Part shown: positions 3,131 to 56,825 of the stretch, in pieces
How the letters are laid out: each line of letters starts with the position of its first letter
Position numbering within the stretch: the stretch's first letter is position 1
Virus record (IMG/VR): IMGVR_UViG_3300034056_000017
Span: 1 to 58,904 of that record
Reading direction: 5' to 3' (one strand)
Source: a virus
Taxonomy: Duplodnaviria > Caudoviricetes
DNA: 58,904 nucleotides
Made by a program: the position numbers and the translations under genes
The notes under the pieces: generated by a model
What the model saw: the letters and a program-made list of their open reading frames with translations, nothing else
Told to the model about the DNA's origin: nothing
Database searches by the model: none

Positions 3131-4041
3131 TACAGGAAGTGCAGTATCAGTTCAGCCGTGACGTTGGTGCCGGCGGCAGCCGTGGTCAGGCAGTGTCCAA
3201 CTTCTTTGAAGTGCTCCGTGTCGGAATCAGATCTGAAGATGACCTGATCGACGTACAGCCGGTCTCCCGCCACACCTGCGTCAGCGCCGTAGAGCCGCAC
3301 GCGCATCTCTCCAGCGTTGATCATGTCGGCAGTGATCGCCGCACTGATCACAGTCACGTCGGTCGTCCCGGCTGCGGCCAAGGTGTCGATCAGCACCCAG
3401 CTCCCACCGCCTGCAACGTAGTCCCAGATGCTGATCGTCACACCGGCCGCGCGGTTGGCGCCGAAGTAGCCATTGAACCGGATCTCCGTCGGCGTCTCGG
3501 TCACCCCGGTGAAGATGACCCTGGCGTCGATGCTCGGCGCCCCTGTGGTCCCACCGATGGTCAGCTTCACCCCGTTGTTCAGGCGAGTGTCAGCGATCGT
3601 GCCGCTGATCGTCACACCGTTGGCGGTGTCGTAGGTGATCGATGTCGCCGGGAAGTCCAGGCCCGGCATGTCCTGCGTGATACACCTCCCGGCGGTCGTC
3701 GGTGACAGGCGCACCCAATCGTTCGGTGCTGCCGCGTAGCCGTCCTCCAGGATGAAGGTCGCCTTGCTCCCGGGAACAGTGGTGATCCACGTCGGGTGAC
3801 CGTCCGGCACGCCGTTCTCCGCAACGAAACCGGTAACCACATAGGGGTTCGTCGCGGCAATGAAGCCGCCATCCGATGCGGTGTCAATGTTGACAGCCGT
3901 GCCTTTCACCGACGGGGCTCCGGTCTTGTTGATCAACTGGATGCGCCCCCACGCCGGCAGGGCGTCGTCCTCGATGACGCCGTTGACGCGCAGGTTGAAG
4001 GTGCGATTGTCTTCTACACAGGTGACGTTCATGGGGTCCAT
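3130..4041 (-). CDS. Virion structural/fibre-associated protein
   Basis: 303 aa G/T/A-rich; coupled to neighbours in the tail cluster. Confidence 0.6.
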   Translation of the reverse strand: MDPMNVTCVEDNRTFNLRVNGVIEDDALPAWGRIQLINKTGAPSVKGTAVNIDTASDGGFIAATNPYVVTGFVAENGVPDGHPTWITTVPGSKATFILEDGYAAAPNDWVRLSPTTAGRCITQDMPGLDFPATSITYDTANGVTISGTIADTRLNNGVKLTIGGTTGAPSIDARVIFTGVTETPTEIRFNGYFGANRAAGVTISIWDYVAGGGSWVLIDTLAAAGTTDVTVISAAITADMINAGEMRVRLYGADAGVAGDRLYVDQVIFRSDSDTEHFKEVGHCLTTAAAGTNVTAELILHFL

Positions 4042-6377: not shown

Positions 6378-9300
6378 TCAAGGCAATGTGTCCAAGAACT
6401 CGCGGTAGATTACATCCTCTTCCGCTTCGATCGCCCTGATCTCCTTGCGCCGCTGGCTCATCGACTTGGTCGGGTCGTTGCGGATGGTATCGATCAGCTC
6501 ACGCAGCGCCGCGGCGCGCTTCGCCTCGGCCTCTGCGCTCTTGGAGATGTCGATCAGTTCACCGTGCTCGGCGTACAGCTCGTCGGCCACCTCGGTGGCG
6601 CCGCCCTTGTTGGCTGCGCGATACTGCGCCCGGTACTTCTTCGCCTCCGCCTTCGCTTCGTTGAACGCGCGCCGGCTGTCTTGCACCGTGTTCTCCCGAC
6701 GGATGATGTTGACCATCGGCACCTCGGCCTCGGTCACGCTGCCGTTCCACGCCGCGCCGCCATCCATACCGAGGGCGGGGATCGGCGGACCAGCGAAGCC
6801 GTAGACCTGGTCGAGGAACGTGTAGGCGCCACCCATCAGGCTGCGCGCGTAGTGCTTGATCGACTCGGGGGAGACGTCGACCGCACCCTCGTTGAACGGG
6901 CTGCCGCCGGTCGCCTCGTTCAGCCCGGTGGCCACCTTGTCGTACCAGGTGCCGCGGGTGTTGCGCCACATGTTCTGGCTGTCCGGGGTGTCCTCCCTGT
7001 ACTGAGTCGGCTGGATCTTACCGCCGAAGTTGTTCTGGTTGAGCGCCGGAGCCAGGGCGATGTTCAGCGCGGTCGGCAGCATGTTGAACCAGCCAAGGAT
7101 GTTGGCCTCCTCATTGATCGGGTTGCCCACCGGGGAGAAGGCGTCGACGAAGCTGGACGCCAGATTCCATCCGCTCTTCTGGTCGAACTTCCCGTTGACC
7201 GCGTCGTTGACCGCGTAGCCCAGACCGACGAAGAAGCTAAACTCGTAAGGCAGCGGCAGGGTGATCTGACCGCGCTCCTTGTTGGTCGGGTCGGGGAAGA
7301 TCAGGTTGCGGTCCTTGGTGCTGCGCGAGATGATCTCCCACTCGTCGTCATCGTCACCGAGGGCACGCACCAGCTGGGCCGACATGTAGCCGATGGCGGC
7401 CAGCGAGCCGACGGCGCCCCACACCTGCGCCTTGTGCTTGGCGCGGAACATGGCGTAGGAGGCGCGGGTCACGCCCTGGATCGCCGGGTTGAAGAACAGG
7501 TAGAGGGCGGACAGGTTGGCGCCCCACTCACCGCGCTTGTCGAAGTTGAGCGTCACGTTCTTGGCCGCAGCTGCCGACTCGGAACGGGACTTGCCCTCTT
7601 CCACCAGGGTACGGTAGGTGGCCAGCCGGTATGCGTTTTCCGACACGCTGTTCAGCGCCTCGACACTGTCGATGAACCAGCGCGCCGGGGAGTACTTGCC
7701 ACGCCGCGCAGCATTCAGCCCGGAGGCGGCCACGGCCTTGGTGTGAGCGTACATCGGTGACTTACCCTGACGCAGCAGATCGTCACGGGTGCGCTTGTAC
7801 TTCTCCTGCATCCCCATCTCGCGCTGGTACATGGTCGTCATCTTCTCACCGACCTGCTCCAGCGTGCCGAGCCAGGCGGCGCCGGTCGACCCGCCATCGT
7901 TGGTGTACTTGTCCACCCACGGGTCGCTGCGACGGTCGCCCGTGCGCAGGTACGTCAGCAGGCTCTTCACCGCCCTCGGGTAGTTGGCGAGGATCTTACC
8001 AGTCACCGTGATGCCGTAGTCCCCGGTGATGTTGATCGTGCCGGCCAGGGCATCGCGGATCGTGTTACGGATCGTGAATCGCGGATCGTACCCGGTGTAT
8101 GCGCGGGAGAGGAAGTTGTTGATCTGCTTGCCGACGTTCAGGACCGACGCCACCTTCTCGACGCCGACCGCAGTCAGGGAGCCGGCCAACACTTCGTCGT
8201 TGAGCTGGATGCGGACCTGCTTGCCGTTAACGTAGGCGTTGATCTCGTTGGGCTGCAGCATCGGGCTCGACATGAAGACGACCGTGGGGTCGGTGCTCTT
8301 AACGACCTTGTACTCGCTGAACGGCCGACCGCTGGTGGCCATGATCGACTGGATGTGCTGGTGAGCCTGAGTCTGCCCACTGACACCAGGGGAGTCGGGG
8401 AACGCGGCCAGAGGCGTGCCCTGGAAGTAGACCGTGTAGGTTGCGACGTTGCGCACCGAAGGGCGCTTCTGCGGCTTGCCGACGGTGCCCACTGCCGGGT
8501 TGTTGGTCTCGAGCAGCATCTGCGCCACGGAGAGGTTGACCTTGTTCTTCTCGACCGCCCGGTAGGCCATCTCGCGCATGTTGATGATGTTCTCGATTAC
8601 CATCTCGTCGCGCAGCCCGTGACCCATGCGGCGCTTCTGCCGGTTGTTAACCTTCTGCCCCTGGCCGGCGCCGCGGGAGATGGCCTCCTGGTCGCCACGC
8701 ACCGGGACGTAGTAGCCGTAGCTGGTGTCCCATGCGTCCTTGGTGTCCTGGTCGATGAGCCCCTCGCGCAGGAGCAGATCAGCGGTGCCCTTGGTGAACG
8801 CCTGCCACTGGTCCGAGATGCGCTTGAGATCCGTCGAGGCGCCGGAGAGGATGTCGCGTGCGTCGATCACATCGTAGCCGGCGGCCACCGCCGCAGCGAT
8901 CTCAGCGTCGGTGGTGGCGTAGCCGTAGGCCAGCTTGGTCGGGTCGCCGTGCAGCTTCTGTATGGCGGCGTTGGCCTCAGCAGCGTGGCGCGCGAGCAGG
9001 TAGTCGTTGATGTCGTCCAGGGGGATCTTCAGCTTGGCGGCTTCCATCACCAGGGGTGCCACGTCAGTCTCGACGAAGCGCACCAGGCGGTCGGCAACCT
9101 TGCCGTTCATGGTATAGAGCCCACGGGCAGCGTTGGCCAGCTCGGACAGCTGCGTGCCAGTCTCAGTGATCCACTCCTGCAGGGTGGCGACCCGGTTGTA
9201 GCGGTCCTGCACCTTGCGCAGGAACAGCTGCAGGTAGGTCTCCGTCGGCGTGCCATTGGCGTTGAGGCGGCGGGAGGAGTACTTCACAAACTCACCAGGC

Positions 9301-12300
9301 GTCTGCTCGGTGACCCCGATCATCGGCTGCGGCGGGACGACCTTCTCGTTCTGCTTGTTGGCAAAGGCGTCAGCAGCCTCCTGGGTCGGGAAGCGTGCGA
9401 CCGTCTTCGTCCCTTCTCCTTCATTCTTGAAGACAAGGTAGGAGCTGCCACCCTGTTGGGGGACGACGAAGTGATGCCCTTCTGCCTTGCTGTTGGGGAT
9501 GCCCGACATCACAGCGATCTGACCCTTGGCGTACTTGGCGAACATCTTCGGCAGCATGGAGTCGTAGAGGTTCTTGAGCCCTTCGCCACCGACCCTGAGC
9601 CCGTCTCCGGTGATCTCCTTGCCGCCTGACTTACCAAGGTCACGACCCTCGCCAGCGACGATGCTCTTGGCGATCTCCTTGCCGACGACGTCCGCCAGCT
9701 CGTTTGCGGTCAGCCCCTCCTTGGTGATGACCTCCTCGCCGTCCTTCACCGCAGACAGGTCGTAGGTGTCGCCCTTCTTGAAGTACTGGATCGCGTCGAT
9801 CTGCTGCGACAGGTCGTAGCGGTCGGCCTGCTGCTGGCCCGTGGTCCAGGCGACGGCATCGAAGCCCTGCTCCTTGGCAATGGCGATGACCCGTTTCACG
9901 CCGATATCGTAGATGCGCTTGCGCAGCCACTCCGGCATCTGCTCCTGGTTGGCGTCACTCGGCCCCTGCATCTCCTCAACGAAGAGGACGCGCTTGCCGT
10001 CCACCTGGCGCTCGTTGTAGCGGATGCGGACGATGGGGTTATTGATCTCGGAGTATTGGGAGTGACCGTCTTTCCAGTTACCAGTAGCCGGTTTCCAATC
10101 ATAACGACCTGCAATACTTATCACCGTGGTATCTGGCAGCGCGGTCAGAGTTTCTTCTGGGAAATATCCCTCCCCTAGCAAGAATGCTCGCGCTGCCTTT
10201 GCTTCCAGGTCAAAGGGCAGTTTGCTATATTCAGGCGCCGTGACGAAGAACTCCCGGTAGCTGCCCGCGACCGCGCCGGGGAGCGTGTACTGACCGAAGT
10301 GGGTGCGCCGTTCTGCTGTCGGCATCTGTGCGCCAGGCGGGAGGTAGTCGTTGAGATCATCACTGAGGCCGGACAGTTCATTATCATCCAGCACCACGTC
10401 CTCGAACTCGACGCTGTTCGCCTTGACGTGGTCGAGCAGCTCCTGCCTGGCGATCGTCCCGTCCAGCCCGGCGAGCACGTTGTCGATCTCCACCGGGGAG
10501 ACGCCGGCGTTGCGCAGCATGGCCTTGAGGTTGAGCAGCGATGTCTTACCCTGCACCTTCTGCTCGACGACGCGCTCGAGCTTGCTGAAGAAGGGAGTCA
10601 GGGTGCGCATGGAGTAGCGGATGTCGGGGTTCTTCGCGCTGAACTTTCCAGAGTTATGCGTGGCGCTCTTGATGTCCGTCTGGTTGAACGCGATGAAGAT
10701 GTCGGTCGGGTCGTAGACGTCCCCTTGTGACCCGCTGTCCGTCACGTTGCGGATGATGGCGCCGTCGTTACCGTACTTCTGACCTTCTCGGGCAACCATG
10801 TCGGTGGTCAACCCCACGTCGCCAGCCTCTTGCACGCTGGCACCAGGAGTGTTGTCAGCCAGTTCGTCGGCCTCATCCTTGGTCAGAACTCCGCGACCAT
10901 CATCGGCATAAACGGGGTCGCCGTCCTGGTCGACAACTTCCCACTGGTCATGCCGGGAGCCGTCCCAGTTGGCTCCTTCAAAGTCTTCTTCGTTCGGGTT
11001 GCGGATGTTGAGGAAGACCTCGTAGATGCCCCGCTGCCCCTCTTCGTCGAAGTCGCTGATCGACTCACCGCGACCGGAGTATGTGCGAGCTGTTGTGCGG
11101 TCAGGGGTGAAAAAGAACGCACCCTTGACCTTGCCGTCACGGCTGTCGAACTCCGTGAAGCCCCCGTCGGTCGTCCCATGATAGACCACCAGCGGCTCGC
11201 CGTTCTCGTCGACCACCTTGGAAACGGACTTCTCGGTGTCGGCCCAGACGCCGCCCTTCATGGTAGCGAACTTCTCCCAATCCCCAAACCATTTCTTGAA
11301 GGCCGGCGTGCGCACCATGGCGTGCTGCTCGGGGGAGAGGTTGGACGGCTTGCCGTTGGGGGCAAGAGGGCGGCTGCTGTACCGGACCCCCTCGCCCTCG
11401 CTGAAGTCTCCGTTGTTCTCGACCGACTTGATGTCCGCCGGATCCCAGATGGCGACGGCGTCTTCAAACTTCTGATCCCAGACACCGGACCAGCCTTCCG
11501 CCTTGGCCGCAGCCTCTGCGCCTTCCCAACCGTGCTTGCTGATGTACTCCGACCACTTGGTGTTGCCCATGTACTTGCCCCGGGCGTAGAGCGCCATGAC
11601 GATCTGGCCGCCTTTGCCGGCGCCATCGTACCCTTCAGCCACATCACGGTCGGGGGAGGTGTAGACCGCCGGTCCCATCGCGCCGATCTTGCTGCGGCGG
11701 AAGGCGTCGATCTTTTTGTCGGTGCCGTGGTAGAGCACCATCGGGGAGCCGTCCTCGTTGACGAGGTTGCTCTCCTTGGCGTTGAACCACGCTTTGAACT
11801 CGGGGGTGTTGGTCAGATCGCGGGAGGAATATTTTACAGGCTGTTGTACTTCTTGGCTTCCGGTGTCGGGTTCGCCCCGAAGAACTCCTCGAAGACTCTG
11901 TCCTCGATCTCCTGGGAAGTCTCGAAGGTAGACGCTTCCTTCAACAGGGACTGGCGTTTCTCCTCTTGCGATGTCGTTGTCGTACCAGGTTGCGGTTTCA
12001 TGGGAACCTCCTTTCGACACCAATGTAGCAAAGTTCTGTGCCGACTGCAAGCCAATTCGTATGATATTGTATGGCGGAACCAAACGCCCCGTGAGTTCGT
12101 GTCTGGTAACCGCGCGGTCGATGGCCTTCTCTGCCGGGAGGTCGACGTAGTGCAGATGCACCGTGTAGCCCTTCTCCTTGAGGAGATCGATGCGAGCCTG
12201 CAAGGAGGCGGGGTTATCTCCGACCATTGGGTAAACGATGTTGTCACCGTTGGTCAGGGCGCGCACCATCACGGACGCCGTGATCTTGGAACTCTCCTCA

Positions 12301-15300
12301 TGCACCGAGCTGGCGCCGAAGCCATTGCGGAAGCCCCACAGCTTCTCCTTGGCCGCGTCCGGGTCGATCAGCAGGGCACCGTGCTTCGCGACCAGGGGGT
12401 CGGCGACAGTGGACTTCCCCGATGCAGGCAGACCGAGAATCAGGTCAGCACGACGATCCTTATTCTTCGCCCCCTCACCGTAGAGAAGGGTCTTGATCCG
12501 GCCACGGTGCAGCCAGCGCAGCGGCGTGTCGATCAGGTGCGTCTTTGGGAGTTTCTCCGCTTCAGAGACCAGTTCGAGAATCTTGGTCGGGATTCGCGCC
12601 TCAAGCTCGGCATCGCTGAGGATGCGACTGCTCGCCTTCACGTCAGCGTTACGCAGGTCGCTCCCGGCCAGCGCCTCCTGTCCTGCGTTCGGATTGGCCT
12701 TGATCTCGTCGGCAACCTTCTTGACGAAGGCGGTGTCCGGCTTGATGTTGCGGCCACCGTTGGCGACGTACTCGTCAAGCTGGGCCTTCATCTCGTCCAT
12801 GTTGATCTGGGACGGATCGGCCACATCGAACGCGGTGTCGGTGCGCGCGTAGTCCTTGCGCAGCTTGGCGAAATTGGGGTTGATGTCCTTCCACTCGATC
12901 TTGCCCTTGACCATCTCCTGCCACTTGGTCTTGGCTTCCTTCGCGGACGTGATCCCCTTGAACATGAACTGCGGGAAGACCGGGAGGATGTTGCGCTCCT
13001 TGCACAGCTCGAGATACGCCCGGGTGGTCTGCTCCGTGGTCTTGCCCTTGTCCCCGGCGAACTCCTGCATGATCGTCTTGCGGTCGAGCTTCTTCTCATC
13101 CAGACTCTTCTCGTTCTGAGTCCCCGTCAAGTTCTTCCAGTTCAGCGCATCATTATAGAACACCTTCGGCATCCCTGACGCATGGAACGGGATGATGTAG
13201 TCGATCCACTCCTGCGCGAGCGCCCACTCGGTCATTGCGTCGGAGGTGGTGACCATGATCACGCCAGCGTTGGGGTGTTTGTCACGCAGATCCTGGGCTT
13301 CCTTCCAGTCCATCCCCATGTGCGCGTCCGCCTTGAACGTCCCGTCCTCTTGCTCGACGGCGAACACCGACATGTTGATCTTGATCCCGGTCTTGCCGAA
13401 GATCTTCACGAACGCTGGATGCTTGGTGTAGGCGTGGGTGCGCATCCCGACAGCATAGGTGTCGACGATCGCCTGCCACAGGTCGAACACATGCTCGATC
13501 TGGAAGTCAGATGTGGAGAAGATACGCAGTCCCGCCCGGCGATTGATCCAGTCGAGGAACGTGACCTTCTCCCCGTTCTCGCGGATCGTTGCTTCAGCCT
13601 GCTTGAGGATCTGGCCGGCGTAATCGGTGTACATCTTCACCGCGTTCTGTGAGGACGACGCCTGTGCCTTGTTGCGGGCCCAGGCGTAGATCTCGGGGAA
13701 CTTCTGTTCGTGCTTGGACTGTCCCTCATCCGTCAGGAACGGCATCAGATCGAACTCGGACGCCTTGAAGCCCTGCTCCCGCGCCTTCTCGATCATCGCC
13801 TTGTCAGCATCGTAGGTCCGACGCTTGGCAGCGACAGCAGCATCGAGCGACCCGTGAGCGGTGATCTCCTTCTTGGTCGGCTTGCCGGGCTGCTTCAGCT
13901 CAACCGTTCCTCCAAGAACCCCGGCGTACCGGGCAACCTCTGCCACGAATATACGGCGCGGAGACTCGACGTAGCAATAGACGCAGGGTGCCTCCTTACC
14001 GGCCTCCCGCATTCTGATCACCATGAGCATCGCATCACCTGCGGTCGGCGCGCGGTCAAGCACCCGGTACAGTTCGATGAGGTTGGCACCATACTCAAGC
14101 CGCTTGATGCAGGACGATGCGAGGTCCAGAGACTTGATGTAGAGCACAGTATCGTTGTTGTTGCGCAGCGGGTTGCCCTTCTTCCACTCGATGTTGTGCG
14201 GGAAGAGATCCTTGACGTTGTCGAGCAGCTCGGCCAGCGCCTTCATCTCGCGGACGTTGTCGACGATCTTCTTGCGGCGCGACTTCGGGACCGTCGGCAG
14301 AGTCTTGTCAAGCTCCGCCGACCACTCGTTTATCGTGCGTGCCGAGTAGACGACCGGCCCCGGTGAGACGATGCCGCTCTCGACGGCTGGTGACTCGGTC
14401 ACCCCTTGACGCTCCATGGCGTAGTCAGCAACCGCCTTGGCGAGGATGGCGCGGACCTTCCTGGCGTCGGTGACGAATGATGCACGATAGGCAAAATCAT
14501 CTGCATTGACGAACTTCGAAATCAGGGAGTCGATCCAGGCGACAATCTTCTGCGACAGGGACTGAAACTTGTCAGCACCCATGTTCGCTTCAACCTGGGT
14601 CCAGAAGTCGGCGTTGTCGAAGTTGTTGCCGAGGATGTCTGCGATCTGCTCCTCGATGTCACCGCCGACCCGAGACTGATACTCCTTGGAACGGAGCAAC
14701 GGCTTGAGTGCGGATTCGAGAGCCGAGTAGAGTTTGGGGTTGTCGTTCTTGAGGAGATGGAGGATTTCGTGACCGAAGACGACGTTGAACTTCACGTCGG
14801 TACGAACATCAATGAAGACGGTGTCACCCATCTTCAGGTAGACCAGACCGTTGTCGGTGATCTTACCCGCGGTGTCACCCTTGCGCTGAAGAGTGCCGAA
14901 GACTACCTTTTTCCCGAAGACCTTGCCGAGGAATCTTGCGAGGTCCATACTCGACCGCGTGCCAGAGCTGCGTACAGCATCGCCGCCTCGTCCGCTTCCT
15001 CGCGCGTCAGACTGCCCTCCTCGATCTGACGCAGTTGCATCGTCAGACAGACCCTGCTGAAGTGCGGCTCCTCCTTGTGCTCCAGCAGATGCCGGCGCCT
15101 GGCCTCCTTGTGCAGCAGCTTGTCCTTGTCCCTCGACGACAGATCCAGTTGCAGAATCTCTTGGTACAAGAGGGGTAAAGGTAATCCCCGTTGCCTTTTG
15201 GAGAGTGTCGGCAATGCCCCGGTTTGAATCATCGATCTGCCATTCTTTGTTGAGAAGGTCTTGTGTCTCATCATCAAGCATAGCACCTTTGTCGATCGGT

Positions 15301-17429
15301 GCAACCTTGGCCGAGTAGGCGACCGTCTGCTGCTTCTTGAGAGCCGTTCTGATCGCGGTGGCGGTCTTGGCATTCGGCACGCTGGTCGAGCCATCCTGTG
15401 CCACCAGGCTCAACTTGCCGGCGGCATCCTGCACGACAACCTGCCCGTCGAGACCAGGAACGGTGAAGGCGGTCCCACCGAGGGACTGCACGGTGGTCTG
15501 CTGCGGAGACGCTGCCGGCTCGAGCGGAGCCGGCGTCGTCCCTACTTCTTCTTGCCCCCGCCCTTGCACTTGCCCATTGACATCACCCCCTAGCCCTTCA
15601 TCTCCTTGCGGCTCCTGCCGCACGTCGGACACTTGCGCTTGTCCCGGCTGATCTGCTTCCCGCACTGGCACTTCATTGGTGGTCTGCTCCTTGGGTTGAA
15701 GGATGAAGCCGCCGTCAACGGCGACCACGTCGTGGCTATCCTGCAGGCGGCGGTAGGACCGCACCCGGGTGGCTGCCGCCTCGTCGGCGTAGATCTTCGG
15801 TTGCCCGGTGGCGGCATCCGTATTGTCGAACGTCGGAGCTGCAGCTGGCGCGGTGCTGGTCGCCGTGCCCCCGTAGACGCTCTCGATCAGCGACTCGTCG
15901 GTCAGCTGCGACACGTCATCGTTGGTCGTCTCGCTGGTGCCGTCGGGGAAGGTGAAGGTTGCGCCACCGTTCTCGTTGCGCGTCACGGTCACCGTGGCGC
16001 CATCGTTCACACCACCGGTGAGCGTGTAGCCAGGGTCAGCGACAGGCGACACGGGGGCGACAGTCGCTTCAGTGTCGCCTGTCGCCGGCAGGTCGACACC
16101 GAGGTTCTCGGCGGTCTGCTCGAACTCGTTGTAGGTGTCCTGGTTCCACTCGGAGGCCGCCGGCGTGCTCACGGCCTCGGCAGCCGCAGCGATGGCGTCG
16201 TCGACGCTGGTGGCCGCCGTGACGTCGGGCGGCGGGGTGACGGGAGCGGGGCCGGAAGGCGACCACCCGGGCACACCACGATACATCCGCTCCAGCGATC
16301 CGGCGGCGGACAGGTTCTCTTGAGTGTCGTCAAGAGTTTTCCGTGCGTCCGGCGACATTGCGTCATATTCCGCACGCCGGCGCCGGATCTCTTCGATCTG
16401 CTCAGGAGACTGCAGAATACCCCTGGCAGTCTCCATCGTTTTACCGGCAGCACCAAACATCCCGGTCTGCACAAGCGTCTGCAGAGCAGTCTCCCTGGCG
16501 TCCTTGCTGGCGTTGTAAGTGCGATCCCCGACCTTAATGTCGCTGGTGTCGAGCATGGTTCCAGACGCCCATGCGACAAGCGTCTCACCGGTGTACTGCA
16601 GCGCCTTGCTTGTACTATCGGGGTCATCCGATGTGATGATGTCCGCAACATTCTGGATGAGGGTCGTCGGAAGCTCGGTCATCTCCTCGACACCAAAGTA
16701 CTCGAAGGTCCGGCGCAGCACGCTCTTGGCGCTCTGACTGTTGAACAGGTCGAAGAACTTGGCAGCAGGGATCGTCTCAAACCCGGCCTCAGCAATGCCG
16801 GCGATCACACCCTCGACCGCAGCAGCACCCTTGCTCTTTCCTTCAATCGCCCTGGCTTCGCCGTAGGTGTCACCGGCCGTGCGCAGGCCCATCGACCCGA
16901 GCATGCCGACAGGACCGAGCGCCATCCCCGGTGCCATGAAACCGGTCGACTCGACGGCGCCAGAGACGAGCTTGCCGGTCTCGGACGTCAGTGGATACTG
17001 TGCATCAAGTGACTTGCGATCTTGCTCAAGTTTGCGCAGGTCTTGGATGGCACTCTCGGCATCGATCGGGACGACCGGACCTTCCGAGTTTTCTTTGACA
17101 TATCCCGGTGCGAACTCCGACGTCAGGAGGTTGAGAGACGCCTCGCTGCGCTCGAGCCCCTGCGTGAACTGTTCAGGAGCCCTGGCAATGATGTTGGGAA
17201 CATCCCGCAGGAAGTTCCCCTCCATCCGATCCTCCGGCGCAGCGATTCCCATGACGTCGCGCTGAGAGCCAGCGGTGCCGGGGTTCCACTCTGCATAGTT
17301 GTCGGGAAGATTCGGATCCTGTGGGTTCCACGACGCATCAAGCCCAACCGGCGCTTCCTCCTCTGCATCAAACTGATCAAAGAAGTTGGCGCCGGTTTGC
17401 TCGTCAAACTGGTCAAAGAAGTTGGCCAT
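6378..17429 (-). CDS. Giant polyvalent virion/ejection protein (3683 aa): HExxH metallopeptidase, Cys-rich unknown module, zeta-toxin-like P-loop kinase, two ART-PolyVal-like domains, LPD38-like C-terminus
   Basis: GHEILH at ~14755-14775; PCVYCYVES; GLPASGKS plus IDPDAAKEKL...HEESS at ~12290-12434; FKAWF...PMVLYHGT and FKKWFGDWE...PLVVYHGT; C-terminal NFDKRG...LYLFFNPAIQG...LPLPYEF; located after the ejection-protein genes. Confidence 0.9.
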   Translation of the reverse strand: MANFFDQFDEQTGANFFDQFDAEEEAPVGLDASWNPQDPNLPDNYAEWNPGTAGSQRDVMGIAAPEDRMEGNFLRDVPNIIARAPEQFTQGLERSEASLNLLTSEFAPGYVKENSEGPVVPIDAESAIQDLRKLEQDRKSLDAQYPLTSETGKLVSGAVESTGFMAPGMALGPVGMLGSMGLRTAGDTYGEARAIEGKSKGAAAVEGVIAGIAEAGFETIPAAKFFDLFNSQSAKSVLRRTFEYFGVEEMTELPTTLIQNVADIITSDDPDSTSKALQYTGETLVAWASGTMLDTSDIKVGDRTYNASKDARETALQTLVQTGMFGAAGKTMETARGILQSPEQIEEIRRRRAEYDAMSPDARKTLDDTQENLSAAGSLERMYRGVPGWSPSGPAPVTPPPDVTAATSVDDAIAAAAEAVSTPAASEWNQDTYNEFEQTAENLGVDLPATGDTEATVAPVSPVADPGYTLTGGVNDGATVTVTRNENGGATFTFPDGTSETTNDDVSQLTDESLIESVYGGTATSTAPAAAPTFDNTDAATGQPKIYADEAAATRVRSYRRLQDSHDVVAVDGGFILQPKEQTTNEVPVREADQPGQAQVSDVRQEPQGDEGLGGDVNGQVQGRGQEEVGTTPAPLEPAASPQQTTVQSLGGTAFTVPGLDGQVVVQDAAGKLSLVAQDGSTSVPNAKTATAIRTALKKQQTVAYSAKVAPIDKGAMLDDETQDLLNKEWQIDDSNRGIADTLQKATGITFTPLVPRDSATGSVVEGQGQAAAQGGQAPASAGAQGGAALQQGLSDDATASDRGGQSDARGSGRGGDAVRSSGTRSSMDLARFLGKVFGKKVVFGTLQRKGDTAGKITDNGLVYLKMGDTVFIDVRTDVKFNVVFGHEILHLLKNDNPKLYSALESALKPLLRSKEYQSRVGGDIEEQIADILGNNFDNADFWTQVEANMGADKFQSLSQKIVAWIDSLISKFVNADDFAYRASFVTDARKVRAILAKAVADYAMERQGVTESPAVESGIVSPGPVVYSARTINEWSAELDKTLPTVPKSRRKKIVDNVREMKALAELLDNVKDLFPHNIEWKKGNPLRNNNDTVLYIKSLDLASSCIKRLEYGANLIELYRVLDRAPTAGDAMLMVIRMREAGKEAPCVYCYVESPRRIFVAEVARYAGVLGGTVELKQPGKPTKKEITAHGSLDAAVAAKRRTYDADKAMIEKAREQGFKASEFDLMPFLTDEGQSKHEQKFPEIYAWARNKAQASSSQNAVKMYTDYAGQILKQAEATIRENGEKVTFLDWINRRAGLRIFSTSDFQIEHVFDLWQAIVDTYAVGMRTHAYTKHPAFVKIFGKTGIKINMSVFAVEQEDGTFKADAHMGMDWKEAQDLRDKHPNAGVIMVTTSDAMTEWALAQEWIDYIIPFHASGMPKVFYNDALNWKNLTGTQNEKSLDEKKLDRKTIMQEFAGDKGKTTEQTTRAYLELCKERNILPVFPQFMFKGITSAKEAKTKWQEMVKGKIEWKDINPNFAKLRKDYARTDTAFDVADPSQINMDEMKAQLDEYVANGGRNIKPDTAFVKKVADEIKANPNAGQEALAGSDLRNADVKASSRILSDAELEARIPTKILELVSEAEKLPKTHLIDTPLRWLHRGRIKTLLYGEGAKNKDRRADLILGLPASGKSTVADPLVAKHGALLIDPDAAKEKLWGFRNGFGASSVHEESSKITASVMVRALTNGDNIVYPMVGDNPASLQARIDLLKEKGYTVHLHYVDLPAEKAIDRAVTRHELTGRLVPPYNIIRIGLQSAQNFATLVSKGGSHETATWYDNDIARGETPVPVEGSVYLRDFPGDRGQSLRGVLRGEPDTGSQEVQQPVKYSSRDLTNTPEFKAWFNAKESNLVNEDGSPMVLYHGTDKKIDAFRRSKIGAMGPAVYTSPDRDVAEGYDGAGKGGQIVMALYARGKYMGNTKWSEYISKHGWEGAEAAAKAEGWSGVWDQKFEDAVAIWDPADIKSVENNGDFSEGEGVRYSSRPLAPNGKPSNLSPEQHAMVRTPAFKKWFGDWEKFATMKGGVWADTEKSVSKVVDENGEPLVVYHGTTDGGFTEFDSRDGKVKGAFFFTPDRTTARTYSGRGESISDFDEEGQRGIYEVFLNIRNPNEEDFEGANWDGSRHDQWEVVDQDGDPVYADDGRGVLTKDEADELADNTPGASVQEAGDVGLTTDMVAREGQKYGNDGAIIRNVTDSGSQGDVYDPTDIFIAFNQTDIKSATHNSGKFSAKNPDIRYSMRTLTPFFSKLERVVEQKVQGKTSLLNLKAMLRNAGVSPVEIDNVLAGLDGTIARQELLDHVKANSVEFEDVVLDDNELSGLSDDLNDYLPPGAQMPTAERRTHFGQYTLPGAVAGSYREFFVTAPEYSKLPFDLEAKAARAFLLGEGYFPEETLTALPDTTVISIAGRYDWKPATGNWKDGHSQYSEINNPIVRIRYNERQVDGKRVLFVEEMQGPSDANQEQMPEWLRKRIYDIGVKRVIAIAKEQGFDAVAWTTGQQQADRYDLSQQIDAIQYFKKGDTYDLSAVKDGEEVITKEGLTANELADVVGKEIAKSIVAGEGRDLGKSGGKEITGDGLRVGGEGLKNLYDSMLPKMFAKYAKGQIAVMSGIPNSKAEGHHFVVPQQGGSSYLVFKNEGEGTKTVARFPTQEAADAFANKQNEKVVPPQPMIGVTEQTPGEFVKYSSRRLNANGTPTETYLQLFLRKVQDRYNRVATLQEWITETGTQLSELANAARGLYTMNGKVADRLVRFVETDVAPLVMEAAKLKIPLDDINDYLLARHAAEANAAIQKLHGDPTKLAYGYATTDAEIAAAVAAGYDVIDARDILSGASTDLKRISDQWQAFTKGTADLLLREGLIDQDTKDAWDTSYGYYVPVRGDQEAISRGAGQGQKVNNRQKRRMGHGLRDEMVIENIINMREMAYRAVEKNKVNLSVAQMLLETNNPAVGTVGKPQKRPSVRNVATYTVYFQGTPLAAFPDSPGVSGQTQAHQHIQSIMATSGRPFSEYKVVKSTDPTVVFMSSPMLQPNEINAYVNGKQVRIQLNDEVLAGSLTAVGVEKVASVLNVGKQINNFLSRAYTGYDPRFTIRNTIRDALAGTINITGDYGITVTGKILANYPRAVKSLLTYLRTGDRRSDPWVDKYTNDGGSTGAAWLGTLEQVGEKMTTMYQREMGMQEKYKRTRDDLLRQGKSPMYAHTKAVAASGLNAARRGKYSPARWFIDSVEALNSVSENAYRLATYRTLVEEGKSRSESAAAAKNVTLNFDKRGEWGANLSALYLFFNPAIQGVTRASYAMFRAKHKAQVWGAVGSLAAIGYMSAQLVRALGDDDDEWEIISRSTKDRNLIFPDPTNKERGQITLPLPYEFSFFVGLGYAVNDAVNGKFDQKSGWNLASSFVDAFSPVGNPINEEANILGWFNMLPTALNIALAPALNQNNFGGKIQPTQYREDTPDSQNMWRNTRGTWYDKVATGLNEATGGSPFNEGAVDVSPESIKHYARSLMGGAYTFLDQVYGFAGPPIPALGMDGGAAWNGSVTEAEVPMVNIIRRENTVQDSRRAFNEAKAEAKKYRAQYRAANKGGATEVADELYAEHGELIDISKSAEAEAKRAAALRELIDTIRNDPTKSMSQRRKEIRAIEAEEDVIYREFLDTLP
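11834..12001 (-). CDS. Nested +1-frame ORF (55 aa) right after the zeta-toxin-like domain; candidate antitoxin
   Basis: AAAGGAGG 5 nt before ATG 12001; MKPQPGTTTTSQEEKRQSLLKEASTFETSQEIEDRVFEEFFGANPTPEAKKYNSL; stop lies in the PVKYSSR linker codons. Confidence 0.65.
   Translation of the reverse strand: MKPQPGTTTTSQEEKRQSLLKEASTFETSQEIEDRVFEEFFGANPTPEAKKYNSL
14903..15274 (-). CDS. Nested +1-frame ORF (~109-123 aa, helical) just upstream of the HExxH domain
   Basis: Alt frame reads like a globular helical protein (LLYQEILQLDLSSRDKDKLLHKEARRRHLLEH...LTREEADEAAMLYAALARG) while the host frame is G/Q/A/S low-complexity; AAAGGTG 9 nt before ATG 15274; alternative ATG at 15232. Confidence 0.55.
   Translation of the reverse strand: MMRHKTFSTKNGRSMIQTGALPTLSKRQRGLPLPLLYQEILQLDLSSRDKDKLLHKEARRRHLLEHKEEPHFSRVCLTMQLRQIEEGSLTREEADEAAMLYAALARGRVWTSQDSSARSSGKR
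15542..15577 (-). CDS. Nested +1-frame basic micro-peptide MGKCKGGGKKK
   Basis: Follows the nested Zn-ribbon ORF; GGGGGTG RBS-like sequence upstream. Confidence 0.35.
   Translation of the reverse strand: MGKCKGGGKKK
15590..15676 (-). CDS. Nested +1-frame 28-aa Zn-ribbon peptide MKCQCGKQISRDKRKCPTCGRSRKEMKG
   Basis: AAGGAG 10 nt before ATG; CxC-x10-CxxC. Confidence 0.55.
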   Translation of the reverse strand: MKCQCGKQISRDKRKCPTCGRSRKEMKG

Positions 17430-53484: not shown

Positions 53485-53771
53485 AAGAGCCAGCTGTTGA
53501 GCTGCACCTACGCAAAGAGATCGAGCGCCTCGGCGGTGTCTGCCGCAAGTGGGTGAGCCCGGGTCACGTCGGCGTGCCGGACAGGATCTGCTTCCTGCCT
53601 GGTGCCATGGTCGTGTTCGTCGAGGTGAAGACCGACACCGGCAAGCTGTCCGTCCGGCAGGAGCGCGAGATCGCTACCCTGCGTGCGCTCAACGCTGACG
53701 TGAAGGTGGTCTATGGGATCGAGGGCGTCGACTGCCTGATCCGGGAGCTTGAGTATGCTCTCACTGCCTAG
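53481..53771 (+). CDS. VRR-NUC domain nuclease
   Basis: KWVSPGHVGVPDRI...FVEVK. Confidence 0.88.
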   Translation: MKEPAVELHLRKEIERLGGVCRKWVSPGHVGVPDRICFLPGAMVVFVEVKTDTGKLSVRQEREIATLRALNADVKVVYGIEGVDCLIRELEYALTA

Positions 53772-53961
53772 CTTCGTCCCTATCGAGGAGTACGCCACAG
53801 TCGGACTGCTGACCGGCGAGATCGGTCGTATTGAGTCATACAGCATCTACGCGGTACAACTTCGACCGCGCCCTCGCAGCAAGAAGCGGCGCATCCAGAA
53901 GAAGTGGCTGAAAGATCCATGGCCGAAGGGCTCGCGGGTGAGATATGTTACAACCCGCTGA
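53755..53961 (+). CDS. Hypothetical basic protein
   Basis: RPRSKKRRIQKKWLK motif. Confidence 0.45.
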   Translation: MLSLPSFVPIEEYATVGLLTGEIGRIESYSIYAVQLRPRPRSKKRRIQKKWLKDPWPKGSRVRYVTTR

Positions 53962-56293
53962 CCTTCACGAGTATCAAAAAAAAGCGATACTTCATCAGCT
54001 TTATAGTCCTGATTCAATGTTACAATTGAAACCAGGATTAGGGAAAAGTTGTATCACCCTGACCTCGATCGCCCACCGCATGGCTGCCGGCCAGATCAAG
54101 AAGACTCTGGTGGTCGGTCCCCTGCGTGTCATCCACGGCGTCTGGCGCAGGGAGGCGAGGAAGTGGTCGCACCTGCAGCACCTGCGCTTCACCGTGCTGC
54201 ACGGCGACAAGCGCACCCGCCTCGAGCGCCTGATCAACAACGGCTTTGATATCGCCCTGATCAACTACGAGAACCTCTCCTGGTTGGCCGACGAGCTGAA
54301 GGCGCGCTACCTGGACCGCGGTCACCCACTGCCGTTCGACATGGTGGTCTACGACGAGGTCACCCGGATGAAGAACTCGACGTCCAAGCGCGGGGCTGCC
54401 TGGCGCAAGCTGACGCCGCACTTCAAGTTCCGCACCGGGCTCACCGGGACGCCGGCCGCCAACGGCTACATCGACCTGCACGGTCAGTACCTGGTGGTCG
54501 ACGGCGGCCAGCGCCTCGGCACCCACGTCACGCACTTCCGGGACGCCTACTTCGAGTCCGACTACATGGGCTGGAGCTATGCCCCCACCGAGCTGGGTAA
54601 GCGCGCCATCGAGCAGAAGATCTCCGACATCACCATCAGCATGGACGCCAAGGATCTGCTGAAGATGCCGGAGCTGCAGTTCCACGACATCATGGTCGAC
54701 CTGCCGCCTGCGGTGATGACCCGCTACCGCGAGGTCGAGGACGACATGTTCACCCGGTTGGACTGCGGCACCGAGATCGAGGTGTTCAACCAGGCCAGCG
54801 TGTCGAACAAGTGCCTGCAGATGGCCAACGGTGCAGCCTACCTGCAGCCTGGCTGTCCTGAGTGGGCGCACGTCCACGACGAGAAGCTCGAGGCGCTGGA
54901 CAGTCTGATCGAAGAGTCGGCCGGCAACCCGATCCTGCTCGGGTATCAGTTCAAATCCGACGCACAGCGAATCATGGAGCGGTACAAGCGGTTGAAGCCG
55001 GTGAACCTGACCGAGGTCAAGGGTAAGCAGATCGAGACCGTCATCAACAACTGGCAGGCTGGGAAGATCCCGCTGATGATCGGGCATCCGGCGTGTCTTG
55101 GTCCCGACACGGAAGTGTTGACAGAATGTCGAGGATGGGTGAATATCGTTGACGTGGTATCAACGGACAGGGTGTTCGATGGTGTTGATTTCGTGAACCA
55201 CGGTGGCGCCATGTACTCGGGGTTCAAACCGACCATCGATGTTCTCGGTATCACAATGACACCAGACCACAAACTGTGGATCAACGGAGAATGGGTGGAG
55301 GGAAAAGATGTTCGAGATTCTTTGCATATTAGGTGCGAAGCCGCGCGGCTCAAAAGGGAAATTGATAACCGTCTGCTTGGCGAAGTGTCTCACATGCGGG
55401 GAAGTGTCGGAGATGTTTCGACAGAACGCAGTGAAGAGCAACCGGAAGAATCAATCACACTGCAAGCACTGCATCAGGCAGACGTATCACAACATGACAA
55501 ACACCCGTATATACGGGATATGGCGCGGTCTCAAGTGCAGAGTGAAAGACCTGACGGATCGAAATTATGGGGCACGGGGGATCGGTGTCTGCGAGCGGTG
55601 GGGCAGCTTTCGGAACTTCTACGAGGACATGTCGCCAAGTTACTCGGACGACCTGACAATCGAGCGCATCGATGTGAACGGCCCTTACTCGAGAGAGAAC
55701 TGCCGGTGGGCAACCAACATGGAGCAACAGTCGAACAAGCGCAACAACAGGGTGCTGGTCTATTGCGGGGAGGAGATGCACCTCGCGGAACTGTGTCGTC
55801 GATCGGGCGTCAGCAAGATGATGATGTTGATGCGATTGAACAGAGGGATGACAGCAGAACAGGCGGTAGAGGATGCGAAGACCTCCCCTTACGGCAAGAG
55901 TCAACGCACGGTGAATATCCGTCGACGCGAAAGGCGCATGTCTACGACATCGTCGACTGTGGTCCAAGACACCGGTTCGTCGTAAGAAATGATGCGGGTG
56001 AGGTGTTCATTTCGCACAATTCTATGGGCCACGGCATCGATGGTCTGCAGGATACCGGCGGAACGCTGGTCTGGTTCGGCCTGCCCTGGAGCCTCGAGCT
56101 GTACGATCAGATGATTTGCCGGCTGTACCGGCAGGGCGGCATGAACAAGGTCATCGTCTACCGGCTGATGGCTCGCGACACACTGGACTTGGCGGTGGCG
56201 GACGCGCTCGCTAGGAAGGACTCAACGCAAGAAGGTCTGAAGGTTGCCATTAACAATTACAGGAGGCGTCATGGGCTGGAGCACCAGTGCTGA
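53945..56293 (+). CDS. SNF2-family helicase, intein-containing (473 aa after splicing)
   Basis: PGLGKS, VVYDE, GLTGTP; spliced motif HPA|SMGHGIDGLQ; QMICRLYRQG. Confidence 0.92.
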   Translation: MLQPADLHEYQKKAILHQLYSPDSMLQLKPGLGKSCITLTSIAHRMAAGQIKKTLVVGPLRVIHGVWRREARKWSHLQHLRFTVLHGDKRTRLERLINNGFDIALINYENLSWLADELKARYLDRGHPLPFDMVVYDEVTRMKNSTSKRGAAWRKLTPHFKFRTGLTGTPAANGYIDLHGQYLVVDGGQRLGTHVTHFRDAYFESDYMGWSYAPTELGKRAIEQKISDITISMDAKDLLKMPELQFHDIMVDLPPAVMTRYREVEDDMFTRLDCGTEIEVFNQASVSNKCLQMANGAAYLQPGCPEWAHVHDEKLEALDSLIEESAGNPILLGYQFKSDAQRIMERYKRLKPVNLTEVKGKQIETVINNWQAGKIPLMIGHPACLGPDTEVLTECRGWVNIVDVVSTDRVFDGVDFVNHGGAMYSGFKPTIDVLGITMTPDHKLWINGEWVEGKDVRDSLHIRCEAARLKREIDNRLLGEVSHMRGSVGDVSTERSEEQPEESITLQALHQADVSQHDKHPYIRDMARSQVQSERPDGSKLWGTGDRCLRAVGQLSELLRGHVAKLLGRPDNRAHRCERPLLERELPVGNQHGATVEQAQQQGAGLLRGGDAPRGTVSSIGRQQDDDVDAIEQRDDSRTGGRGCEDLPLRQESTHGEYPSTRKAHVYDIVDCGPRHRFVVRNDAGEVFISHNSMGHGIDGLQDTGGTLVWFGLPWSLELYDQMICRLYRQGGMNKVIVYRLMARDTLDLAVADALARKDSTQEGLKVAINNYRRRHGLEHQC
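55094..56020 (+). mobile_element. Intein (309 aa) inserted in SNF2 motif V
   Basis: N-term CLGPDTEVLT, block B MTPDHKL, block F VYDIV, C-term ISHN followed by Ser+1. Confidence 0.93.
55308..55985 (+). CDS. HNH-type homing endonuclease encoded in the +1 frame inside the intein
   Basis: GGAGG 6 nt before ATG; CLTCG, CKHC, YGARGIGVCERW, TIERIDVNGPYSRENCRWA, C-terminal HTH; same family as 24300..25022. Confidence 0.88.
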   Translation: MFEILCILGAKPRGSKGKLITVCLAKCLTCGEVSEMFRQNAVKSNRKNQSHCKHCIRQTYHNMTNTRIYGIWRGLKCRVKDLTDRNYGARGIGVCERWGSFRNFYEDMSPSYSDDLTIERIDVNGPYSRENCRWATNMEQQSNKRNNRVLVYCGEEMHLAELCRRSGVSKMMMLMRLNRGMTAEQAVEDAKTSPYGKSQRTVNIRRRERRMSTTSSTVVQDTGSS

Positions 56294-56687
56294 CTTCGGT
56301 CGGGTAAGTATCGACGAGCCGGAGATTGAGAGAGAAACCATCTACTGTCCGCAGGTCCGCTTCGGTGGTAAGACGCCGGATCGCCCCACCATGCGCCAGA
56401 GCGAGTGCCAGCGGCGCATCGACACGAAGGCGGAGTGCAGCCTCAAGTGCCCGGTCGCAACCGGTGCGCCGGTGGAGGAGACGCGCGACCCGCGCTTCGG
56501 TCGGTGCGCCTGCGGCCGGTGGTACGACACAGCGAAGCTGAGCATGTGCAGCATCTGCCGGGTGGACGAGCTGATGAAGATCGAGCGGGACAAGAAGGTT
56601 CTGAACAGGTTGAAGGATCGGCGCAAGGCTGAGCTGCGCCGGCATGACAATTTGTTCAAGAAGTACGGCGGCGAACTAACCGGATGA
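56271..56687 (+). CDS. Cys-rich hypothetical protein (possible late regulator)
   Basis: AGGAGG RBS; CACG...CSIC; last gene of the replication arm. Confidence 0.55.
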   Translation: MGWSTSADFGRVSIDEPEIERETIYCPQVRFGGKTPDRPTMRQSECQRRIDTKAECSLKCPVATGAPVEETRDPRFGRCACGRWYDTAKLSMCSICRVDELMKIERDKKVLNRLKDRRKAELRRHDNLFKKYGGELTG

Positions 56688-56825
56688 GGGAGTAGCCGTC
56701 GTCATCCTCGTCGATGACCACGTCGTGCGTCGACAGATCGACGACCAGCATGAACCGGTCGCCGTTGTCGCAGACGTAACTGCAGGTCTTGCAGACATCA
56801 CCGAAGAGGTGACAACCGACCGGGA

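Follow-up and report, generated by a model that had tools for sequence, protein, structure and literature searches.

The virus record IMGVR_UViG_3300034056_000017 (Duplodnaviria; Caudoviricetes), a complete 58.9-kb record in IMG/VR whose 58,904 nucleotides are here called the window, carries a gene for an SNF2-type helicase that is interrupted by an intein. The best explanation of this locus, which we consider probable, is that it is a mobile class-1 intein inserted in the conserved GHPA/SMGHG motif of a phage helicase (the slash marks the insertion point) and that its middle is read in two frames. The helicase frame supplies the two halves of the splicing domain, and the +1 frame encodes a separate protein whose most likely function is that of a homing nuclease.

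An intein with a second gene in its middle

The helicase is encoded by a single open reading frame (ORF; 53945-56293, 782 amino acids) that runs through the intein and reads ...MIGHPA/CLGPDTEV...MTPDH...HVYDIVDCGPRHRFVV...FISHN/SMGHG. Its matches are to SNF2-rel_dom in Pfam (E = 5.6e-16) and to the PHROG family of DNA helicases phrog_62 (E = 1.3e-120). The elements of the locus are as follows; pLDDT is the AlphaFold2 models' predicted local distance difference test score.

53945-55093, plus strand: N-extein of the SNF2-family helicase, 383 amino acids ending ...MIGHPA, with the SNF2-rel_dom and phrog_62 matches
55094-56020, plus strand: class-1 intein, 309 amino acids in the helicase frame, C1...T56-x-x-H59...H308-N309, then Ser
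55094-55387, plus strand: HINT (splicing) domain, N-terminal half, covering residues 1-98 of the intein, pLDDT 90-95 for residues 1-90
55297-55301, plus strand: Shine-Dalgarno-like GGAGG, 6 nucleotides upstream of the nested ATG at 55308
55308-55985, plus strand: nested +1-frame gene, 225 amino acids plus TAA, with a zinc ribbon, an HNH-like core and a helical C-terminal part
55386-55472, plus strand: zinc-ribbon part of the nested protein, C27-x2-C30...C52-x2-C55
55388-55918, plus strand: host-frame linker, intein residues 99-275, predicted to be translated and disordered, stop-free, unconserved
55656-55736, plus strand: beta-beta-alpha core of the nested protein, IERIDVNGPYSRENCRWATNMEQQSN, residues 117-143
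55919-56020, plus strand: C-terminal splicing region with blocks F and G, HVYDIVDCGPRHRF...FISHN
56021-56293, plus strand: C-extein of the helicase, SMGHGIDGLQ..., 90 amino acids plus stop

A preliminary description, made from the letters of this DNA alone, had placed an intein at 55094-56020 splitting HPA/SMGHG, and all of its elements were found there. C1 (55094-55096), T56 and H59 of block B (T56-P-D-H59), D285, H308 and N309 do not vary among the 13 inteins aligned, and the residue following H308-N309 is a serine (TCT at 56021). The AlphaFold2 model of the helicase frame, built with these 13 inteins, was confident at both ends, including a pLDDT of 93-94 in the last three ten-residue blocks (281-309), and fell below 50 at residues 99-229 and 231-275. 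When this model was used as a Foldseek query, nearly all top PDB rows were inteins or other HINT-type domains; the best, the MchDnaB-1 intein (6rix_A), had a probability of 1.00 and an E value of 3.5e-3, above the 0.001 line of the tool. The NCBIfam intein_Nterm match was weak (E = 0.036, below its cut-off). The intein has a lower GC content (0.48-0.57) than the flanking helicase (0.60-0.70). A group I intron was considered and rejected: a search of 54700-56400 against Rfam gave no match with an E value of 1 or less, and the locus has both an open host frame and the intein blocks. The intein is genuine, and the intact catalytic residues, together with selection for an open host frame (see below), suggest that it splices to leave a 473-amino-acid helicase.

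The nested ORF was likewise confirmed at 55308-55985, with its GGAGG, and is open together with the helicase frame across all 678 nucleotides, where the third frame has 16 stops. Its AlphaFold2 model (mean pLDDT 80.4) has a beta-rich N-terminal part with CxxC...CxxC, a beta-beta-alpha unit and C-terminal helices. The cysteine pairs that had been proposed to bind zinc held up well across the family, with C27, C30 and C55 invariant and C52 nearly so, and several family members gave weak Pfam zinc-ribbon matches. In the core, strands were modelled at 117-120 and 132-135 and a helix at 137-143, and R120, Y127, N131, T136, E139, Q140 and N143 are invariant. The proposed C-terminal helix-turn-helix is plausible only: helices are modelled at 159-192, but Pfam helix-turn-helix matches are weak. 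The tail (213-225) is disordered in the model and overlaps block F.

A canonical in-frame homing endonuclease domain was rejected, since in the window, as in each of the 10 relatives examined, the nuclease-like ORF is in the +1 frame with respect to the intein. The frame-0 centre of the intein, which the preliminary description had read as filler, gave no family match in Pfam, PHROG or NCBIfam and has low model confidence across residues 99-275, so that this reading stands for the linker. It does not extend to the ends of the nested ORF, where the first ~27 and last ~20 nested codons overlap confidently folded parts of the splicing domain. Residues 1-27 of the +1 protein and residues 72-98 of the intein are both modelled confidently, which indicates that this stretch is truly dual-coding.

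The nested gene probably has its own translation start. The start codon lies at an identical offset, 214 nucleotides into the intein, in 10 of 10 members, including a remnant in locus L002 described below; it is ATG throughout except for GTG in L016. A purine-rich run occurs at the same place upstream in all 10 relatives (e.g. GGAGG, GAAAGAGG, GGAAGAAG, AAAGG). Two points count against reading this run as a ribosome-binding site: it is also encoded by conserved intein residues (W-x-E-A/G-K), and it is weak in some members (AAAGG in L015 and L017). The conserved start codon, the Shine-Dalgarno-like run and selection at the protein level together make independent translation, by internal initiation on the helicase mRNA, the best reading, as the preliminary description had supposed. 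The internal promoter that it had also suggested fared less well. The hexamers TTGACA (55118-55123) and GAATAT (55141-55146) are present, but a promoter scan of 53700-56800 lists neither and gave no site on the plus strand; TTGACA simply encodes V-L-T codons and is exact in one of 10 members, and we no longer regard it as a promoter.

The layout is conserved in independent assemblies

Contigs from a second sample and study (X2) span 55042-56210 with 0 differences and 0 gaps, which disposes of the assembly frameshift that the preliminary description had named as the finding that would overturn it. A search of IMG/VR with the +1 protein gave 20 loci, in 15 of which the homologous ORF was nested +1 in a longer ORF; the aligned longer ORFs are the same helicase with an intein at the same site. 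The remaining five are free-standing relatives. A search with the helicase added L026 and L027, which are identical to each other. After removal of near-duplicates, 11 distinct sequences share the GHPA/SMGHG site, the frame and the start offset, and they do so although their +1 proteins are only 45-63% identical. The two-frame layout is not an assembly error.

Locus L008 (1608-2452) is a truncated copy: its nested ORF is missing the zinc ribbon, and its host frame becomes open only within the intein, with no recognisable N-terminal part of the helicase upstream on the 5-kb contig.

Selection on the two frames

We measured whether the host frame is open beyond chance by permuting synonymous codons of the +1 ORF while keeping its protein and codon usage. 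In the window, the host frame was open in 0.0002 of 5000 such shuffles, with 6.8 stops expected and 0 seen, so that the earlier observation of two open frames is confirmed as more than coincidence. The host frame had 0 stops in nine of nine sequences, against 6-17 expected, and was open in at most 0.0008 of shuffles; the third frame of the same nine has 9-27 stops. Seven further cases, including Brucella phage Tb, gave the same picture (0 host-frame stops against 5-11 expected; open in at most 0.001 of shuffles). The avoidance can be seen codon by codon in the window, where none of 61 +1 codons that precede a codon starting with AA, AG or GA ends in T, compared with 28 of 163 elsewhere.

Amino-acid conservation was confined largely to the +1 frame. 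Across 28 pairs, identity averaged 0.51 for the +1 frame, compared with 0.29 for the helicase frame and 0.28 for the third frame, which is non-coding, and nucleotide differences at +1 codon positions 1, 2 and 3 were 0.38, 0.33 and 0.59. In the core of the nested gene (+1 residues 28-204) the corresponding identities were 0.53, 0.28 and 0.28. At the two ends of the nested ORF both coding frames exceeded the third (+1/host/third 0.34/0.29/0.23 and 0.41/0.32/0.23), and in the non-overlapped splicing parts identity rose to 0.61 and 0.72, the latter for the last 30 residues. Taken together, the identity and stop results mean that the +1 frame encodes a conserved protein and that the helicase frame is only kept readable: selection acts on the +1 protein sequence and, in the host frame, only against stops.

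Distribution, loss and further insertion sites

Both related inteins and intein-free helicase alleles, which the preliminary description had proposed to look for, were found. Among 47 related helicase loci, 34 have an uninterrupted HPx/SxGHG and two carry the intein; of the remaining 11, each extends past the contig end, is broken or escaped the motif pattern. The intein-free alleles are contiguous through GHPA/SMGHG. We then built a tree from 34 spliced exteins, 11 with and 23 without the intein. It omits near-identical loci (L010, L012-L014, L022, L027, L053-L059, L067, L070), partial loci (L008, L016, L037, L046, L047), broken loci (L042, L048), those that carry a different intein (L041, L043, L044) and loci without the motif by pattern (L050, L052, L066, L068, L069). 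On this tree the presence of the intein needs five changes, four of them forced by well-supported branches, and L026, which has the intein, is sister on short branches to L033, which has none. Against a picture of mobility alone, the intein is clustered on the tree beyond random expectation (five changes compared with 9.5 in shuffles), which suggests that much of its spread has been vertical.

Locus L002 carries a 147-amino-acid mini-intein at the same site. Its +1 frame keeps the first 52 nested residues, followed by a stop, and this remnant is 48% identical to the L015 protein (E = 2e-17). The remnant marks the mini-intein as a deletion derivative and not an ancestor; it arose when the nested gene lost its core.

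Homologous inteins with the same nested gene family were found at three further sites, one in a helicase and two in DNA-polymerase genes. The second helicase site (NKCLQ/C...HN/CNGSPY) is occupied in L041:3934-4875 and L043:3934-4893, with a +1 nested HNH-like ORF of 223 amino acids. L042 is the L041 locus, broken by frameshifts and an N. In L003:190-4098 a single DNA-polymerase ORF of 1303 amino acids contains two inteins, each with a nested out-of-frame ORF of the same family, one in +2 (1857-2615) and one in +1 (3164-3787). The polymerase site with the +1 nested ORF is common to L003 and the cultured Caulobacter phage RW (MK929790, L072), whose intein holds a 219-codon +1 ORF at 2375-3031 in a record that annotates only 'DNA polymerase'. 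Caulobacter phages GB2A, RLK and KcrB gave the same match as phage RW. The shared offset and frame, together with recurrence at other sites, point to a design that is old and persistent rather than a fresh invasion.

A third helicase intein site lies in the P-loop (GK/C...) of L044:1873-4377 and L048:1888-3354. Here the intein has an ordinary in-frame LAGLIDADG-type centre, with motifs (LGDG... / LLDTDG) read by eye; the L048 helicase continues in another frame.

Nature of the nested protein and alternative explanations

Profile searches of both frames, as the preliminary description had recommended, set the nested protein apart from the frame-0 centre: the +1 product matches six PHROG families that carry an HNH or restriction endonuclease annotation, led by phrog_3377 (E = 1.7e-44) and phrog_374 (E = 2.9e-39). 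Read by eye, the family motif I-E-R-I-D...Y...N-C-R-W-x-T..E-Q..N resembles the HNH signature, and H61, which is nearly invariant, lies outside it. In an exhaustive structural search of 48,161 chains, the enzyme PacI (3m7k_A) came top (Z 6.2, root-mean-square deviation 2.2 A over 73 residues, residues 61-144 of the model). PacI is a beta-beta-alpha-metal enzyme that is not known to have the usual general-base histidine. A Foldseek search of the +1 model against the PDB gave nothing below E = 0.3. In the ESM Atlas the nearest clusters are unnamed viral proteins, and the I-HmuI_NUMOD-like, NUMOD1 and DUF723 clusters, which score 0.85-0.90, serve as leads only. By tblastn, 833 phage records contain relatives of the +1 protein, mostly as free-standing genes. 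A search for longer proteins (nine matches at E <= 1e-10) gave no version that is an in-frame intein domain, which the tool rates as weak evidence. Among the longer proteins, P0007 (684 amino acids, from one ENA contig) is a copy of the helicase with its intein, whose called protein starts in the helicase frame, shifts midway into the nested frame and terminates where the nested gene does; either the allele is frameshifted (dead) or the sequence contains an error. On balance we regard homing nuclease as the most likely function of the nested protein, with reasonable rather than high confidence.

The main rival keeps the architecture and changes the function: the +1 protein would bind DNA sequence-specifically by means of a degenerate HNH-like module, without catalytic activity, and might act as a regulator or as a targeting factor for another nuclease, and the intein would have spread mostly vertically or with help in trans. 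Several results weigh against a nuclease and lend this rival its force. Pfam HNH models matched none of 12 family members even at E = 10, an NCBIfam search of the +1 product gave no HNH match, and searches of PDB sequences, whether started from one sequence or from the profile, yielded no relative, only chance-level zinc-ribbon rows. The family profile did not match the canonical HNH_3-type ORF from L043 in hhalign. An invariant arginine, R120 in I-E-R-I-D, stands where the general-base histidine would be expected, in a register read by eye and not taken from a tool alignment. The PacI score is rated middling by the tool, and an axonemal protein with no relation to it ranks second (Z 5.5). Finally, proteins with two or three tandem copies of the module exist (the set P0002, P0004, P0005, P0006 and P0008), and in P0008 the module is fused to a YqaJ-like nuclease domain (PF09588); both arrangements would also suit a DNA-binding module. 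The 'complete' HNH nuclease of the preliminary description was therefore too strong a term, and what survives of it is the match to PHROG HNH families together with a weak fold match to PacI. We nevertheless consider a purely DNA-binding role unlikely, albeit a possibility to be taken seriously. It has to contend with the strength of the PHROG matches, with a confidently modelled beta-beta-alpha unit and with the first rank of an HNH-family enzyme among so many chains. The gene also occupies the position of intein homing nucleases, the distribution of the intein needs several gains or losses, and relatives of the gene are common as free-standing phage genes, a kind that is usually mobile.

The remaining alternatives to a long-established, separately translated homing nuclease gene concern how the arrangement arose or is expressed, and we rate each lower still. 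The preliminary description held that a free-standing HNH gene had just invaded a mini-intein, a short-lived step towards decay or in-frame fusion. Free-standing relatives do exist, the same origin has been proposed for other out-of-frame intein nucleases in a 2025 preprint (10.1101/2025.01.02.630785), and the intein differs in GC content from its flanks as noted above. A recent event is nonetheless improbable, since arrangement, offset and frame are kept among the 11 divergent sequences and again in homologous inteins at other sites (RW polymerase, L003, L041/L043), the sole mini-intein found derives by deletion, and the search for longer proteins gave no in-frame fusion but only the frameshifted P0007. 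Programmed +1 ribosomal frameshifting would instead produce the +1 protein as a fusion with the N-terminal intein half. The frames do overlap on one mRNA, and in the window the +1 frame is open for 16 codons before the ATG; in L015 and L017, however, only three codons separate the ATG from the upstream +1-frame stop, and in L005 nine, which leaves almost no room for a shared shift site and little for a frameshift fusion. Similarity among the +1 proteins begins at the methionine (M-F/Y-E/K-I-L), and the ATG or GTG with its purine-rich run is fixed at one offset, so that we think frameshifting very improbable. Least of all do we credit an assembly or sequencing frameshift that has displaced an in-frame nuclease domain. 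The window is a metagenome-assembled virus record, but two compensating frameshifts would be needed, the contigs of a different sample and study are identical without gaps, more than 10 independent assemblies and two cultured-phage genomes have the same two-frame layout, and the host frame is kept open against expectation; the chance of such an error is negligible.

Comparison with known systems

Canonical inteins carry a homing nuclease of the LAGLIDADG or HNH type as an in-frame domain. As in the present family, the nuclease coding sequence is flanked by block B and block F, and homing is presumed to follow the same logic. The difference is that here the nuclease lies outside the intein polypeptide, so that the homing and splicing proteins are physically separate. 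PacI (3m7k/3ldy), the best structural match to residues 61-144, has only 16% sequence identity to the nested protein, and the zinc sites that surround its core are absent from the nested protein core.

Inteins with separately framed nucleases are already in print, and the present locus adds to a known, rare kind; the novelty implied by the preliminary description is reduced accordingly. Gosselin, Arsenault and Gogarten describe inteins of actinophages in which LAGLIDADG or VSR-like nucleases lie antisense, and a same-strand case with an endonuclease VII-like nuclease in 'frame 3'; they infer that transfer is ongoing and propose that the nucleases began as free-standing genes that invaded (10.1101/2025.01.02.630785). 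As here, the splicing blocks are in the extein frame with the nuclease ORF between them in another frame, the host frame is open, and distribution among closely related exteins is patchy. The HNH cases in that account are in frame, whereas the HNH-like family here is in +1; its host genes, from actinophages, encode terminase, polymerase, capsid and thymidylate synthase, whereas ours belong to environmental and Caulobacter phages; and its secondary ORFs are stated to be 'typically outside the bounds of the splicing domain', whereas here folded parts are overlapped at both ends (10.1101/2025.01.02.630785). We found no description in the literature of the present helicase and polymerase intein family or of its nested gene, although the supplements of that study may list further types.

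A homologous intein in a cultured phage is that of Caulobacter phage RW DNA polymerase gp057, which is 31% identical to that of the window over its full length (E = 5e-31). Its nested gene is of the same family, in +1, with 38% identity (E = 6e-25), and its host frame is stop-free against 5.4 stops expected. Phage RW differs in its extein and insertion site (KL/C...HN/CENVVQ in the DNA polymerase) and in that the nested ORF is unannotated; we found no paper describing it. A parallel case is Brucella phage Tb (NC_019446), in which gp08, a 'putative HNH endonuclease', is nested +1 in an intein-bearing terminase large subunit. Like the helicase intein, it combines a class-1-type intein (C...VHN/C) in an essential phage gene with a 228-amino-acid +1 HNH ORF, and its host frame has 0 stops compared with 10 expected. 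The Tb HNH protein is unrelated to the present nested protein (BLASTP E = 1.7), and the extein differs. The literature makes passing mention of it, placing the HNH active site within a zinc-ribbon domain (PMC4422536).

Two other systems share part of the design. The ShiLan-domain insertion in a mycobacteriophage methylase is described as a 'hidden' out-of-frame HNH ORF in a host gene with an open frame, with the translation start left as an open question (PMC11855218). That insertion has no splicing domain, is thought to be retained in the protein, and is reported as having no ribosome-binding site found (PMC11855218), whereas the window has a complete intein and a Shine-Dalgarno-like run. Dassa et al. 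2009 reported host genes broken into two ORFs, with trans-splicing and free-standing GIY-YIG or Vsr-like nucleases (PMC2677866). These fractured genes resemble the present case in that an intein contains a nuclease gene translated on its own and the hosts are DNA-replication genes from environmental phages or microbes, and short coding overlaps with the C-terminal intein part occur among them (PMC2677866). A fractured gene with a split intein was rejected for the window, where a single 782-amino-acid ORF spans the intein and its openness is under selection.

The helicase gene and its surroundings

A megablast search of 53900-56700 against phage records gave no match, so that the locus has no close DNA relative among deposited phages. 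The closest phage relatives of the helicase protein are 56% identical (Vibrio phages and Yersinia phage fEV-1). The C-extein matches phrog_11354 (E = 8.8e-25, on residues 689-770) and Helicase_C (E = 0.0027) and aligns with intein-free alleles. The helicase gene is preceded by a DNA polymerase gene and a VRR-NUC-like nuclease gene.

Directly 3' of the helicase, and overlapping its last codons, is a Cys-rich 138-amino-acid ORF on the plus strand (56271-56687) with no PHROG match. The start of the helicase gene shows a local dip in GC content (53875-54099; 0.46-0.48 against ~0.63 around it). Elsewhere in the window, on the minus strand, a 3682-amino-acid ORF (6378-17429) matches Pfam ART-PolyVal (E = 1.7e-30), LPD38 (E = 8.3e-23), Zeta_toxin (E = 2.8e-14) and AAA_33; it resembles a giant 'polyvalent protein' and takes up about one fifth of the genome.

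A model for the overprinted intein

We propose that ribosomes in frame 0 would translate about 177 codons of disordered, stop-free linker between the N-terminal half of the splicing domain and the C-terminal splicing block, and that the two HINT halves would then fold together and excise the intein to give the 473-amino-acid helicase. Other ribosomes would start at ATG 55308 behind GGAGG and make the separate 225-amino-acid protein, with its predicted zinc ribbon, HNH-like beta-beta-alpha core and helical tail for DNA binding. In co-infection, its most likely role would be to nick or cut helicase alleles that lack the intein, and repair would copy the intein into them. The composite would be old and stable, given its presence at four sites in helicase and DNA-polymerase genes, and in-frame deletion could remove the nested gene to leave a mini-intein. 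The interpretation with which this work began is therefore partly supported: its architecture was largely right, and its promoter, the recency of invasion, its certainty about HNH and its novelty have been corrected.

A broader generalisation is more tentative, and we would put its chances at a little under even. The overprinted design may be a stable, old mobile unit, made of one intein lineage and one nested nuclease-like gene, that has moved among at least four helicase and DNA-polymerase sites and is truly dual-coding at its ends. Equally tentatively, the nested gene would have kept its start within a few codons of the invariant Trp behind block B, downstream of it, and in most cases its +1 frame. 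If such a unit exists, separate translation would be advantageous, in that the nuclease would be expressed from the mRNA of the host gene itself, at a low level limited by ribosome traffic, and the splicing domain would be spared the burden of a folded insert, and many phage inteins called 'mini' or 'endonuclease-less' would hide such genes.

Separately framed nucleases bear on how inteins and homing nucleases first met (the 'splicing first' idea) and on whether splicing and homing must be physically linked. To these questions the locus adds a large conserved family, which comprises 11 distinct sequences at a single site and has relatives at three others, for which the evidence of selection on both frames is quantitative and a product of loss is documented. 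Homologues in cultured Caulobacter phages make bench testing possible. Nested genes of this kind are missed by gene callers, and the homing-nuclease content of phage genomes and the share of inteins regarded as 'mini' are therefore likely to have been misjudged.

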